Assembly (NCBI GenBank): GCA_016297695.1
Contig: JAEDGC010000004.1
Span: 8,074-72,073 of the forward strand
DNA length: 64,000 nt
Reading direction: 5' to 3'
Origin: Bacilli bacterium
GTDB taxonomy: Bacteria; Bacillota_I; Bacilli_A; RF39; UBA660
This document shows positions 40,702 through 47,486 of the stretch, in pieces. The notes beneath the pieces were generated by a model that did no database searches, had not been told where the DNA came from, and worked only from the letters and a program-made list of their open reading frames with translations. Each line of letters begins with the position of its first letter. The stretch's first letter is position 1. The translations under genes and the position numbers were made by a program.

Positions 40702-40812
40702 ATGAAGATTTTAATTATATTGGGATTATCATTGATAATCCTGTTTTTATTTTGTGCTTGTAAAGTTTCAAGCAGATGTTCAAGAATGGAGGAGGAAAAT
40801 GAAAGGAATTAA
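40702..40812 (+). CDS. possible 36-aa hydrophobic leader/micro-protein upstream of the adhesin gene
   Basis: GAGGTG RBS 5 nt before the ATG. Translation MKILIILGLSLIILFLFCACKVSSRCSRMEEENERN. Its stop overlaps the adhesin start in another frame. Below the ORF-track size cut-off. Confidence 0.3.
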   Translation: MKILIILGLSLIILFLFCACKVSSRCSRMEEENERN

Positions 40813-43800
40813 AAGATTATTATTATCAGTTGGTATAATTTCATCAACAATATTTGGTTTATTTGCAAATTGTTCTCCTGTAAAAGCAGAAAATTATTCA
40901 GGACAAGCAATTTGGCCAAGTGAAATGATATCAAATGTTTATATTAAAAAATTAAGAGCAGATGGAAGTGGAAAATATCAACAAGCAAGATTTATTAGAA
41001 GAAGTGAAGACAATGCTTTTGTATATTGTTTACAACCTTTTGTTGATATTAATAATAATTATGTATATCAAGTTGCAAGAAGTGATTATGAAATCTATTT
41101 AAATATGAGCAAAGAACAATTTAAAAAAATAAGTTTGTATGCTTATTATGGATATGGATATGGAAATCATACCGAGCATAAATGGTATGCGATAACGCAA
41201 GTTTTGATTTGGAGAACAGCAGATCCTAGTTCACAATTTTTCTTTACTGACACATTAAATGGAAATAGAAATGATAGTTTATTTGCAAGTGAAATTGCAG
41301 AATTAGAAAATTTAGTAAATACTCATTATGTTAATCCAGAATTTGACAATGTAGGAAATATTAAACTTCCTATAACTAATACTATTTCTATGAATGATAA
41401 GAATAATAAATTAAGTGAATATAGGATTACAAATCAAAGTAATGTTTCAGCAAGTATAAGTGGAAACACTTTAAATATTACTGGAACAGGAATAGGTAAT
41501 GCTTATATTAAATTAACAAAAACAGATACAAGATTTTCTGTACCACCAATAGTATATTTTAGTGATTATTCACAAAATGTATTTAGATTAGGTGCTTATG
41601 ACCCATTAGATGTAGAATTAAATTTTGAAGTCATTGGTGGAAAGGTTGCAATTCAAAAAGTAGATAGTCAAAACTTAACGAATATTGCACAAGGTAATGC
41701 AACATTACAAGGAGCAGTCTATGGAGTATATAGAGAAGATGGAACAAAACTTACTGAAATAACTACTAATGGAACAGGGTATGTAAAAAGTGATTATTTA
41801 TCTAGTATAGGAAAACTATATGTTCAAGAAATAAGACCAAGTGTAGGTTATAAATTGGATACAACTAAATATTATGTTGAATTATCAAATGGAAATTTAG
41901 AACCTACAATACAAGTCAAAGAAGAAGTTATTGAGGGTAAAATTAAAATAACAAAATTAGATAATGAAACTAATTCTTGTAAAGCACAAGGAGAGGCAAC
42001 ATTAATTGGTGCAAAATATAAAATAGTCAATTCAAAAGGAGAAGTTGTAGAAACTTTAACAATTGGAAATGATTGCACAGCAATATCAAAAAGTCTTCCT
42101 TACGATAATTATAAAGTTATAGAGGAGCAAAGTTCCGTGGGCTATTATATAGATAAAAATTCATATAATGTTTCTATTAATGAAGAAAAAACTTATGATG
42201 TAATAAGTAAGGAACAAGTAATTAAGGGTAAAATTAAAGTTAATAAAATAGATAGTGAAAATAATTCATGTGTTGCACAAGGACAAGCAGTATTAAAAGG
42301 TGCAACTTATGAAATATTAGATTTAAAAGGAAATGTAGTAGATACAATTACTATTGATGAAAATTGCACAGCAACATCTAAATATTTGCCTTATGGACAC
42401 TATAAAATAAAAGAGAAAACATCTTCAAAAGGTTATTATTTAGATACAAATGTTTATAATGCTAACATTACAGAAGATAATATTATTACTATAACTTCAA
42501 AAGAACAAGTTATTAAAAATTATATAAGTATTTTAAAACAATATGATTATGTTGATGGAAATACACAATTTTTAAATGCTGAAGCAAATGTTAAATTTGA
42601 AATATTTTATCCAAACGGAACAAAATATGGAGAAATAATGACCGATAGAAATGGGTATGCGACATTAGACATTCCCTATGGCGTATGGAAGTTTCATCAA
42701 GTTAACTCTCATACTGGATTTGAAAAGATATATGATTTCTTTATAACAGTAGATGAAGATAGTAAACTAGAACAATATTATAATATTTTAAACAATAAGT
42801 TAGCAGCATATCTTCAAGTATTTAAAACTGATAGTGAAACTGGTAAAACAATAGCACTAGCAGATACAACATTTAAAATTTTAAATGTAGATACAAATAA
42901 ATATGTTTCACAATATGTCGGTGGAAAAGTTTATAGTGAGTTTAAGACGGACGAAACAGGGAAGTTTATCACTTATTTAAAATTGGAGGCAGGTAATTAC
43001 AGATTAATCGAAATAAGTTCTCCAAAAGGATATTTGATAGATAAAAATGGACTACCATTTACTATTGGAGATAACACATATTATAACTACACAACATATG
43101 GAGCATTCATAACTGTATATTTCAAGGATACACCAATTAAAGGGCAAGTTGAAATAAATAAGTTAGGAGAAAAATTTACTACTAATAATGGTTCATTTAG
43201 TTATGAAAATATACCACTAGAAAATGTTGTGTTTAATATATATGCTGATGAAGATATTAAAACATCAGATGGTCAACATTTATATTACAATAAAGGGGAT
43301 TTAGTAGATACTATAATCAGTAATAGAAATGGGTATGCAATAAGTAAAAACATTCCACTTGGAAAATACTATATTGTAGAAGTAGAAACAAATAATAACT
43401 ATGTTTTAGATTCAAAAGAATATCATTTTGAATTAACTGAAATTGATAATAAAACAGCAATAGTATATAAATCATTAAGTATGTTAAATAAATATGAAAA
43501 AGGAGAACTTGAATTTACTAAAACAGATTTAATTAGTGGTGAAGCAATTGCTAATACGAAAATAGAAATATATACAGATTCAGATGAATTGATTTTTTCT
43601 GGAATAACTGATAAAGATGGAAAAATTGTTATAAAAAATCTTCCAATTAATCAAAGATTTTATATTTTAGAAGTTGAACCTGCAACAGGTTATGTTAAGA
43701 CAGAAGAAAAGATATATTTTGAGATTAAATCAAATGGAGAAGTTGTAAAAGCAAATATGACTAATAAACCAATAACAGGAAAAGTAGAATTCACTAAAAC

Positions 43801-45745: not shown

Positions 45746-46240
45746 ATGTTAGTAAAAATTAAAGATTTTATATTTAGGATAATTTATATTTTGCTAATCA
45801 TTTATTTGTTAATATTTGTACCATCCTTATGGGGACAAAAACCTCTTGTCGTTATTTCTGGTAGTATGGAACCGACACTTAAAGTAGGTGGAATTTTATA
45901 TTATGAAAAGATAGATATAAATGAACTTGATGAGGGAGATATATTAGTATATCAAACAAAAGAACATATAATTTCACACAGAATTGTGGATATTACTGAA
46001 AATGGATTTATTACAAAAGGAGATATTAATAATTCTGTGGACAACTATTTGGTGAGTGATGAACAAGTATTAGGCAAAGGAACAGATTGGTCTATACCTT
46101 TTATTGGTTATTATGCAGATTATATATATAGCCATAAATATTTATTATATATTTCATTAGGAGTGATAATAGTTGATCTATGTAATGATATGTATAAAGA
46201 ACATAAAAAGAAAGTAGGTAAGAAAATTGAAAAAGAATAA
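45746..46240 (+). CDS. sipW: signal peptidase I, SipW type (short form)
   Basis: ISGSMEPTLKVGGILYY, ISHRIVDI and TKGDINNSVD, with N- and C-terminal TM helices. Confidence 0.85.
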   Translation: MLVKIKDFIFRIIYILLIIYLLIFVPSLWGQKPLVVISGSMEPTLKVGGILYYEKIDINELDEGDILVYQTKEHIISHRIVDITENGFITKGDINNSVDNYLVSDEQVLGKGTDWSIPFIGYYADYIYSHKYLLYISLGVIIVDLCNDMYKEHKKKVGKKIEKE

Positions 46241-47486
46241 ATATATATTTATAGCAATAATCTTATCAATATTTTGTTCTTTGAGTGTAACATTTGCGTA
46301 TTTTAAATCAAGCACAGATTTATTATCAGCATTTAAAACAAAAAGTTATTATATTCAATTAAATGGTTCAGGTGGAACTTTTAATGGCGAAGGGGTAGTA
46401 ATATCAAATGGAACAACTACACTACCAACACCGATAAAAAGTGGATACACATTTTTAGGATATAGTAATAGTTCAAATGGAAATATAGATTATTCAATAA
46501 ATATAAATAATATAAACGAAATTAATGATAAAGAAATATATGCTAAATGGCAAATAAACACATATAGCATTTCTTATAACCTTAATGGTGGAACTATAAG
46601 TGGACAAAAAACAACTTATAATGTTGAAGAAAGTTTTACACTACCAACTCCAAGTAAAACAGGACATAATTTTTCTGGTTGGACTGGAAGTAATGGAACA
46701 ACGAAACAAAAAACTTTAACAATACCAAAAGGTACAACAGGTAATTTAAATTATACAGCAAATTGGGATACAAATAGTTATCTAGTTGATATTAATCCTA
46801 AAATAGATGGAATAACATATAATTCAGGTTTATCTGGATACACATTTGATGTATGGGTAAATGGAACATTAGTTGCAGATAATGTTATTGATTGGTGCCA
46901 AAATGTAAGTTATGGAAGCACCGTAAGAGTAAAAACAAATGCACATGATGGAATGAGTACAAGTTATGATGAAACAATAATTGTTGGAACAAGTGGTGCA
47001 AATATTTCTCCAAGTTGGATTAAAAATTATTACACAGCAAGTTATTATATAAATGGAAATTTATATACAACAAGTTCAGTTGGATATGGAGATACACTTC
47101 CAGTTCATGCAGTTTCATTAAATCCATGGGAAGTATGGGATGGATGGAATAATATTCCAGGTTCAATGCCAAATTCTGATGTAAGAATTGATGGATATTA
47201 TCATGAAGCAAATTGTTATGTATGGGCAGGACACCCAAAAGCACAAAATGGTTATAATATAATGACTCAAGTTGTAATAGCAGCACGAAATGATTTTACA
47301 GGAGTAACAGGTCCTTATGAATCAACATCAATACAAGGTGTAGCATTATGGACTATGCACACAGATTCATCATTAAAATATTCACAAGTAATGGCTAAAT
47401 TGCCAACATCTATGAATAGATATTATTGGTGGAGTTATGCAGAAGTTCATTGTGATAATGGTTATGCATTTGGATATAACAAATAA
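46227..47486 (+). CDS. secreted protein with SipW-type signal and Listeria/Bacteroides (InlB B-type) repeats
   Basis: TTG start. Signal IFIAIILSIFCSLSVTFAYFKS. Repeats TTLPTPIKSGYTFLGYSNSSNG and FTLPTPSKTGHNFSGWTGSNG. Confidence 0.75.
   Translation: MKKNKYIFIAIILSIFCSLSVTFAYFKSSTDLLSAFKTKSYYIQLNGSGGTFNGEGVVISNGTTTLPTPIKSGYTFLGYSNSSNGNIDYSININNINEINDKEIYAKWQINTYSISYNLNGGTISGQKTTYNVEESFTLPTPSKTGHNFSGWTGSNGTTKQKTLTIPKGTTGNLNYTANWDTNSYLVDINPKIDGITYNSGLSGYTFDVWVNGTLVADNVIDWCQNVSYGSTVRVKTNAHDGMSTSYDETIIVGTSGANISPSWIKNYYTASYYINGNLYTTSSVGYGDTLPVHAVSLNPWEVWDGWNNIPGSMPNSDVRIDGYYHEANCYVWAGHPKAQNGYNIMTQVVIAARNDFTGVTGPYESTSIQGVALWTMHTDSSLKYSQVMAKLPTSMNRYYWWSYAEVHCDNGYAFGYNK

Follow-up and report, generated by a model that had tools for sequence, protein, structure and literature searches.

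Why should a conjugative element carry, among its DNA-transfer genes, what appears to be a kit for a SipW-dependent fibre, complete with its own signal peptidase? The question is raised by a 64,000-nucleotide stretch of DNA from a Bacilli bacterium (GTDB lineage Bacteria; Bacillota_I; Bacilli_A; RF39; UBA660; GenBank assembly GCA_016297695.1, contig JAEDGC010000004.1, positions 8,074 to 72,073 of the forward strand), which was analysed over its full length and is called the window here. The list of open reading frames (ORFs) and profile searches place five tightly packed genes, all on the plus strand, at window positions 40799-47486. They encode, in this order, a thioester/SpaA-repeat adhesin, a sortase, a BsaA-family protein, an archaeal-type SipW and an InlB-B-repeat protein, and all five are found where an initial annotation had described a co-directional block. 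The block consists of two layers with different histories, the adhesin with its sortase, and the trio of BsaA-like, SipW and InlB-B genes. Mobile and optional, the trio is a cassette that occurs almost exclusively in conjugative elements, and its place among DNA-transfer genes suggests an undescribed mating aid in Gram-positive bacteria. This cassette is the new part, since the adhesin-sortase layer is of a kind already known.

The conjugative element

The chromosomal housekeeping genes uvrB, argS, prfA, prmC and murA, together with a gene for a penicillin-binding protein, extend to 35.75 kb. Two contigs from sister strains (L061 and L062) have the same gene order, but in both an amidase gene replaces the element after the gene of a flavin adenine dinucleotide (FAD)-dependent protein. 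Homology to these empty-site contigs is lost near position 35,767, about 17 nt past the stop codon of the FAD-dependent gene, and this position is taken as the approximate left junction, with the chromosome to the left and the element to the right. The element begins with regulators, followed by ParA and ParB (38100..39816, plus strand), the five-gene block, a 2444-aa methylase/helicase, a DUF3991-Toprim protein and HU. The transfer genes for a NikA-like protein, a MobA/VirD2 relaxase and a DUF3801 protein come next (59960..62386, plus strand). Contig L058, which bears the window's 293-aa protein, continues with VirD4, TrbL_2 (VirB6-like), DUF4314 and PrgI. The block therefore sits in an integrated conjugative element of an uncultured Bacillota bacterium of the gut with a low GC content, because sister strains show the empty site and because relaxase, VirD4 and type IV secretion system (T4SS) genes follow. 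Its description in the initial annotation as borne by an integrative and conjugative element (ICE) was correct. No integrase is encoded within the 64-kb window, and the right end of the element lies outside it.

ParA and ParB, identified from their ORFs and from homologues labelled ParA/ParB_N in L001, are backbone markers and served as the anchor for comparing relatives. In close relatives of the element (L001, positions 1-3028, and L067) a VirB4-like ATPase gene on the opposite strand is located just 5' of ParA, and L067 also has a weakly BsaA-like gene (28% identity) 5' of ParA. The gene content at these positions suggests tandem or nested elements.

The trio among transfer genes

A survey anchored on the 204-aa BsaA-family protein, the predicted subunit of the fibre, mapped 57 loci from contig look-ups and from a scan of 185,579 species-representative genomes. 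It has 521 homologues, of which the best 120 show an identity of 66% or more; all are from metagenomes or metagenome-assembled genomes (MAGs). All the carriers found are gut MAGs, of human, ruminant, rabbit and other origin. The order subunit-SipW-InlB-B is kept in every one of the 41 loci in which the subunit is at least 65% identical (L001-L041). A gene labelled VirB4, VirB6-like, VirD4, VirB2-like, relaxase, NikA or DUF3801 is present in the fetched flanks of at least 34 of these 41 loci, and three more are truncated copies of transfer-gene elements. The remaining exceptions are three short contigs and a single locus, L023. One contig from a single MAG, CAKOSN010000009.1, holds two different trio-bearing elements (L039 and L031). 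No match to the 204-aa protein was found by tblastn in 72,556 plasmids, and megablast of window positions 38-62 kb against plasmids returned only a 41-nt match of chance size.

There are at least five arrangements of the trio among the transfer genes. In one of them the adhesin, sortase and trio are followed at some distance by VirB2-like (PF18895), TrbL, VirB4 and M23 peptidase genes. Elsewhere the trio is preceded by VirD4 and one further gene, or is itself followed by VirD4. It can also stand directly before NikA, relaxase, DUF3801 and VirD4, or between NikA with three small genes and the relaxase. Another arrangement has a sortase, a VirB6-like gene and a small gene before the trio, and the window represents yet another type. 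Across the trio loci the subunit is 65-92% identical, compared with 43-64% for the relaxase and 46-61% for DUF3801, so that the subunit is better conserved than the backbone. The link to conjugation proposed in the initial annotation is stronger than the window's sequence alone showed, as the 41 trios are almost always found among T4SS or relaxase genes.

The BsaA-family subunit

The 204-aa protein (45072..45686, plus strand), the predicted major fibre subunit, scores 117.5 bits with NCBIfam TIGR04090, 'BsaA family SipW-dependent biofilm matrix protein' (cut-off 60), and 20 bits with the SipW-type signal model TIGR04088 (cut-off 19). The score with Pfam Peptidase_M73 (PF12389), 22.3 bits, is marginally below the cut-off of 22.5. 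On these profiles the protein belongs to the BsaA/TasA family, which bears out at the sequence level the earlier label 'TasA/BsaA-like'. Homology to pilins of the VirB2/TrbC type was not found, as BsaA/TasA models alone match the protein. Its signal peptide extends to about A31 and is followed by an N-terminal extension (residues 32-49) and then by a β core. The AlphaFold2 (AF2) model is all-β, with a predicted local distance difference test (pLDDT) score of 70-89 for the core from residue 51 onwards and with residues 1-49 disordered. Foldseek, with this mediocre model as the query, ranked the TasA structures 5of2 and 5of1 eighth and 26th, with a probability of ~0.5 and a template modelling (TM) score of ~0.30.

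The extension contains the hydrophobic-x-N-x-F pattern as I39-x-N41-x-F43. N41, E54 and K70 are conserved in the homologues, and E54 and K70 are invariant within the ICE clade; Asn, Glu and Lys are retained in 32-33 of 33 distant paralogues (32-50% identity). The same pattern, a conserved Glu and Lys, a length of ~200 aa and a SipW-type signal are features of the BsaA subunit of C. perfringens. BsaA polymerises in a SipW-dependent manner (PMC7395162), using donor-strand exchange and an isopeptide bond (PMC11580942). Residues 28-38, which follow the signal, insert into the adjoining subunit with V33 and F37 entering the core, N35 is bonded to K74 with E56 as the catalyst, and mutants of this triad lose the heat- and SDS (sodium dodecyl sulphate)-resistant oligomers (PMC11580942). 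N41, E54 and K70 are plausible candidate counterparts of the BsaA triad N35, E56 and K74.

A hairpin with a 15-bp stem and a T-rich tail follows the subunit gene (45693..45726, plus strand; RNAfold -16.7 kcal/mol) and is a candidate partial terminator. Hairpins occupy the same gap 3' of the subunit gene in about 12 other loci, with sequences that differ between loci. Such a hairpin fits excess synthesis of the major subunit, as far as its sequence and position can tell. The gap hairpins of L001, L004, L007, L011-L013, L018, L019, L033, L034 and L041 are strong and have T-rich tails. The gaps after the subunit gene in L008, L017, L020, L029 and L032 are short and without a hairpin.

SipW and its substrates

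The sipW gene (45746..46240, plus strand) starts 59 nt 3' of the subunit gene and encodes a short SipW of 164 aa. The protein scores 101.9 bits with TIGR02228, archaeal-type signal peptidase I (cut-off 51.85), has Ser, His and Asp motifs (SGSMEP, SHRIV and KGDINN) and has membrane segments at its N- and C-termini, all of which indicates a signal peptidase I of the ER/archaeal type. With the Bacillus SipW equivalog model NF046067 the score is 84.9 bits against a cut-off of 190, so the enzyme is of the same type without being the Bacillus orthologue.

The InlB-B-repeat protein is 419 aa long, and its gene (46227..47486, plus strand) overlaps sipW by 14 nt. It scores 48.2 bits with Flg_new and 56.5 bits with TIGR02543. 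It has a SipW-type signal, the 18-residue extension of the subunit, a bead-like stalk and a variable C-terminal α/β domain, but no BsaA-type core. The AF2 model (pLDDT 86) is a chain of small β domains with the α/β domain last, and Foldseek matches it to stalks of TIE proteins, YwfG, the InlB B-repeat and pilins.

Beyond the predicted cleavage site (A|YF) lies the 18-residue extension, AYFTTSDTIENFFKTALY for the subunit and AYFKSSTDLLSAFKTKSY for the InlB-B protein. The motif [AS][YFL][FY]x7[NSD]x[FIL]x[TSA]xxY is present in 61 of 80 BsaA proteins and 35 of 47 InlB-B proteins, and in none of the 1614 other proteins of these loci; a looser pattern matches 2.2% of other proteins. In a six-frame translation of the window the strict motif has exactly two matches, one at the N-terminus of the subunit and one at that of the 419-aa protein, and the signal strings previously read from these two proteins, GGTIAYFTTSD and SVTFAYFKS, are both present in the translations. 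The peptidase thus has two obvious candidates for private substrates, in keeping with the dedicated role that the initial annotation gave it. The position equivalent to N41 is Asn in 26 and Ser in 24 of 58 InlB-B proteins. From the model of the subunit and by analogy with BsaA, the extension is likely to be a donor strand.

A plasmid-borne peptidase of the S26 family, TraF, processes the pilin of RP4, and element-borne enzymes of pilin maturation that resemble signal peptidases exist in Gram-negative systems. SipW might, like TraF, mature T4SS components, the BsaA-like protein being incidental. A gene for a VirB2-like protein (PF18895/TrbC) does follow in ten trio loci, at a distance of three to four genes. 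However, these proteins have ordinary signals or none, without an AYF-type motif, and SipW as their maturase was rejected on this ground. The SipW motif is confined to the two genes that flank sipW, and SipW never occurs without both substrates in the surveyed loci. Furthermore, many trio loci have no VirB2-like gene in their flanks, and neither the window nor the next 6 kb on L058 showed one. A role in T4SS maturation is therefore very improbable.

In an alignment of the 419-aa family the N-terminal two-thirds of the protein are conserved, whereas the last third occurs in at least three unrelated-looking variants (the window, P0161 and P0215 types). The residues E327, C330, G335, C409 and G412, which include the Cys pair C330 and C409, are invariant around the variable domain. 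A variable last third on a conserved stalk is the pattern expected of a binding tip, and the sequence and the model together make the protein look like a fibre cap or an adhesin. Exchangeable ends on a conserved stalk are also expected of specificity determinants, and the fibre with its variable cap might mark the carriers of the element, or select recipients, instead of promoting contact. The optional nature of the trio agrees with this, and Gram-positive exclusion proteins that reach far from the cell are known. PrgA reportedly limits redundant mating in pCF10. On the other hand, the trio proteins have no similarity to known exclusion proteins, and variable end domains fit the recognition of recipients for adhesion equally well. 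Surface exclusion or partner discrimination is considered improbable.

Proposed assembly and function

In the assembly proposed here, the sortase would fix the thioester adhesin, on its long SpaA/CnaB stalk, to the cell wall by way of the VPxTx signal. The adhesin could then bond covalently to the partner surface, as the thioester adhesin of pLS20 does in mating. SipW would cleave the subunit and the cap at their special signal peptides and so free their N-terminal extensions. The subunit would polymerise outside the membrane, residues 32-49 of one molecule inserting into the β sandwich of the next, and the hairpin after its gene would give an excess of subunit transcript. Each contact might be locked by an isopeptide bond between N41 and K70 with E54 as the catalyst, as in C. 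perfringens BsaA. The 419-aa protein could occupy one end of the fibre only, because it has the extension and lacks an acceptor domain, and would act there as TapA does for TasA, capping or nucleating the fibre. The cap would display the variable, disulfide-braced end domain, which would recognise a surface. Together, the two layers would make donors stick to recipients in the flowing gut, by formation or stabilisation of mating pairs or by aggregation. What the sequences show is the gene content, the family assignments, the integration, the synteny with transfer genes, the common extension and the conserved residues; the cleavage by SipW, the polymerisation, the cap, the isopeptide lock and any effect on transfer are inferred.

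The chances that the element encodes a donor-strand fibre with an adhesin-like cap that promotes contact between donor and recipient appear evenly balanced. A more specific version is put forward tentatively, namely that the trio builds a true mating fibre, a chaperone-free filament formed by donor-strand exchange, possibly locked by isopeptide bonds, with a cap that determines specificity and tethers donors to recipients.

Mating aid or cargo

Several observations weigh against a mating fibre. The AF2 model of the subunit is mediocre (mean pLDDT 65), no Foldseek match to it falls below an E-value of 1e-3, and a search of the PDB with the subunit sequence profile found nothing real. N41, E54 and K70 are spaced differently from N35, E56 and K74 of BsaA, and were matched by pattern. 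In the InlB-B protein of the window, Ser takes the place of N41. The extension motif was derived from the same sequences in which it was counted, and an 18-position hidden Markov model (HMM) of the subunit extension detects, at E<10, only 15 InlB-B proteins (best 0.0027), and that of the window is not among them. Because the HMM picks up the InlB-B proteins so weakly, the shared extension is treated as a finding at the level of a pattern. All hosts are MAGs, and the trio is known from its genes alone. Thioester adhesins and InlB-B proteins are also typical host-binding factors, so that a role in colonisation would fit the same genes. In L023 the genes after the trio (subunit 69% identical) are one for a glycosyltransferase and then rplA and rpoB, and no transfer genes occur within 8 kb; from its gene order this locus (1870-12478) may mark an element's edge or be a remnant in the chromosome. 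Finally, at least 12 of the more distant elements in a survey anchored on ParB (ParB 55-60% identical) lack the trio.

The ParB survey also found four close relatives that carry the full block. The elements without the trio have the order ParA-ParB-secreted protein-adhesin-sortase and then pass directly to small genes and the helicase. Hence the trio is dispensable for this backbone and cannot be essential for transfer. The adhesin and sortase belong to the backbone of the element, because at least 12 related elements keep both without the trio. Conversely, an adhesin and/or a sortase is near the trio in about 25 of the 41 loci, and about 16 have neither nearby. The five genes were first proposed to form a single module; this holds for the trio, which is conserved together in all 41 loci, but not for the adhesin and sortase. 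Absence of the block from otherwise identical, transfer-proficient elements, combined with a deletion that has no effect, had been named as evidence against a role in transfer, and such absence is now seen in part, as the trio is missing while the adhesin and sortase stay.

The optional trio in one backbone family is what would be expected if the adhesin and the fibre kit were cargo, that is, gut-colonisation or biofilm-matrix genes that ride on the element and have no part in DNA transfer. This is the main rival to a mating aid. The closest relatives outside ICEs agree with it. These are chromosomal-looking loci (L042-L057, 32-50% identity) with the order VWA protein-InlB-B/SHIRT protein-BsaA-SipW-BsaA-215-aa protein-(sortase), and they have no transfer genes nearby and resemble the sipW-bsaABC biofilm operon of C. 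perfringens. On this view the trio descends from chromosomal matrix operons. Pairs of SipW and TasA genes on plasmids of E. faecium and L. paracasei, beside glycosyl hydrolases and insertion sequence (IS) elements, look like typical cargo, thioester adhesins are best known as host-binding factors, and L023 has a chromosomal context. The position of the trio argues the other way. At least 34 of the 41 trios lie inside blocks of transfer genes and in the same orientation, at positions that include those between NikA and the relaxase and directly 5' of the VirB2-like/VirB6/VirB4 genes, and not in the variable, IS-flanked regions. The association has survived at least five rearrangements with a subunit more conserved than the backbone proteins, and within the clade of at least 65% identity only L023 and the three short contigs lie outside a transfer context. 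Cargo is thus a possible but rather doubtful explanation, and both surface exclusion and TraF-like pilin maturation are less likely than it.

In the chromosomal-type loci L043-L048 a gene for a reverse-transcriptase-like protein of ~497 aa and one for a 116-140-aa protein lie between the giant VWA gene and the InlB-B/SHIRT gene (for example, L044 4937-6830 and L043 3609-5415). Asn-rich ORF fragments (NNNNANGRNVNTNGN...) adjoin these two genes. Such a gene content resembles that of a diversity-generating retroelement with the fibre locus as its target. L051 contains a tandem duplicate of the chromosomal-type fibre locus, with two copies within ~10 kb.

The adhesin and the sortase

The adhesin gene (40799..44449, plus strand) encodes 1216 aa from its ATG. 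The protein scores 26.4 bits with the Pfam model TED (cut-off 22) and 366 bits with SpaA over nine stretches. The thioester residues would be Cys76, in FVYCLQP, and Gln133, in AITQVLIW. The C-terminus has the variant sorting signal VPNTE, a hydrophobic transmembrane segment and a basic KK tail, and the homologues likewise end in [VI]PxT[EGSAL], a hydrophobic stretch and a basic tail. With a TED domain, the Cys/Gln pair, isopeptide-type repeats and a sorting signal all recognisable in the sequence, the protein can be assigned to the TIE, or thioester-domain, adhesins. A terminator-like hairpin with a T-run is located 5' of the gene (40721..40743, plus strand), and a separate transcription unit probably starts at the adhesin gene.

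The gene of the 212-aa sortase (44421..45059, plus strand; Pfam Sortase 70.3 bits) overlaps the adhesin gene by 29 nt, and its translation is probably coupled to it. The active-site His (in AGHSG) and Cys (in TLITC) are present. The position expected for the catalytic Arg is taken by Lys in the window's sortase and by Lys or Asn in the element-type sortases of L001-L038 (NKQIV), whereas the sortases of the chromosomal-type loci have Arg (DRQLV). The sorting signal paired with the element-type sortase is VPxTx and not LPXTG. All scores with models of sortase classes C, D and E are below their cut-offs.

Relation to known systems

The sipW-bsaA-bsaB-bsaC operon of C. perfringens is one of the known systems that come closest to the trio. 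In both, the subunit falls in family TIGR04090, SipW is dedicated and encoded next to its substrates, and a sortase gene adjoins (srtB in C. perfringens). The window's SipW is shorter, and where C. perfringens has BsaB and the VWA protein BsaC the window has, as the partner, the InlB-B-repeat protein with the subunit's extension. In C. perfringens the operon lies on the chromosome and is under the regulation of a biofilm matrix operon, whereas the window's module is embedded in conjugation genes. BsaA/TasA genes have been reported to occur as neighbours of genes for sortases, SpaA-domain proteins and LPXTG proteins (PMC11580942).

Similarly, the tapA-sipW-tasA operon of B. subtilis combines a major subunit, a private SipW and a second SipW substrate, which is proposed to act as a nucleator or cap by a donor-strand-like N-terminus. 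The gene order differs, however, and the 419-aa protein has no detectable homology to TapA. B. subtilis TasA lacks the N-E-K triad (PMC11580942), and its operon is encoded by the host and controlled by SinR, unlike the element-encoded module. The host tapA-sipW-tasA matrix raises the transfer of ICEBs1, and in mixed matings TasA has to be made by the donor (PMC6158512). Thus the earlier statement that Gram-positive conjugation has not been linked to SipW-dependent fibres does not hold, as donor TasA promotes ICEBs1 transfer.

The adhesin resembles p34, the TIE adhesin of pLS20, and other TIE proteins (PMC8092201; BaTIE, PDB 6FWV) in its N-terminal thioester domain, Cys/Gln pair and CnaB/SpaA stalk, and in having its gene in a conjugative element. 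Efficient conjugation of pLS20 requires its adhesin, chiefly in liquid, so that a role of thioester adhesins in conjugation has already been shown (PMC8092201). Unlike the window, with its dedicated sortase and VPxTx signal, pLS20 has no sortase gene, no sorting signal on the adhesin and no SipW/TasA module. PrgB of pCF10 and the LPXTG adhesins of Gram-positive T4SS elements are likewise element-encoded, wall-anchored and accessory, and promote the formation of mating pairs (reviewed in PMC12857230). PrgB differs from the window's system in using a polymer-adhesin domain and in being a single protein.

The plasmid pairs from E. faecium (L133, NZ_CP040905, 178707-179893) and L. paracasei (L132, pWX3, 19267-20494) consist of a signal peptidase I and a 'TasA family protein'. 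As in the window, a mobile replicon carries an archaeal-type signal peptidase beside a TasA-family gene. In contrast to the window, there are only two genes, placed directly 3' of a large glycosyl hydrolase gene (GH53 or GH92). IS elements are close by, T4SS genes are absent from the vicinity, and the SipW proteins are only ~32-34% identical. This gene order gives a hint that glycoside hydrolases are displayed by a SipW-dependent system. A parallel with pCW3-type plasmids of C. perfringens, which combine a sortase or adhesin with a signal peptidase, was considered and set aside as not relevant, since those peptidases are of the bacterial type and lie in toxin loci.

Full-text literature searches found no description of an element-encoded SipW/TasA-type module within T4SS genes. 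The words 'conjugati' and 'mobile' do not occur in the paper on BsaA phylogeny, and a 2025 review, which does not mention SipW, states that Gram-positive T4SS systems encode no conjugative pili (PMC12857230). Carriers that are known only as MAGs may be the reason for this gap. The current view is of conjugation systems without pili that rely on single wall-anchored adhesins (PMC12857230). The loci described here add dozens of gut conjugative elements in which a predicted fibre kit, including a peptidase of its own and a cap-like protein, keeps its gene order and sequence among the transfer genes. As a contact device it would be a new class of apparatus for mating-pair formation, would help to explain efficient transfer in the flowing gut, and would single out the variable cap domains as possible determinants of the recipient range. 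A true mating fibre would match in function the adhesive part played by conjugative pili in Gram-negative bacteria, while being put together in a wholly different way. TasA-type fibres would then have been recruited by mobile elements for DNA transfer, and the biology of TasA/BsaA fibres would extend from the biofilm matrix of the host to a function of mobile elements. If the trio were only cargo, it would still be a widespread mobile adhesion module in uncultured gut Bacillota.

The SipW locus of the host

The second, differently organised SipW locus that the initial annotation placed at 11.4-14.6 kb of the host chromosome is present. It encodes a TasA-like protein of 220 aa (11468-12130; Peptidase_M73 28 bits), a 411-aa protein with an FSYFK-type signal (12207-13442) and a SipW of 352 aa (13522-14580). 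The SipW proteins of host and element are 31% identical. The TasA-like proteins are barely alignable, with 23% identity over 91 residues, and the Glu of the N-E-K set is absent from that of the host. The C-terminal tail of the host SipW is ~170 aa long and rich in Lys and Glu. The six ORFs that follow at 14.6-19.7 kb have no match in Pfam. The locus comes after a tRNA-Cys gene and lies in a stretch of 20-24% GC content (window positions 10283-19669), and from this composition and setting the region could itself be an island.

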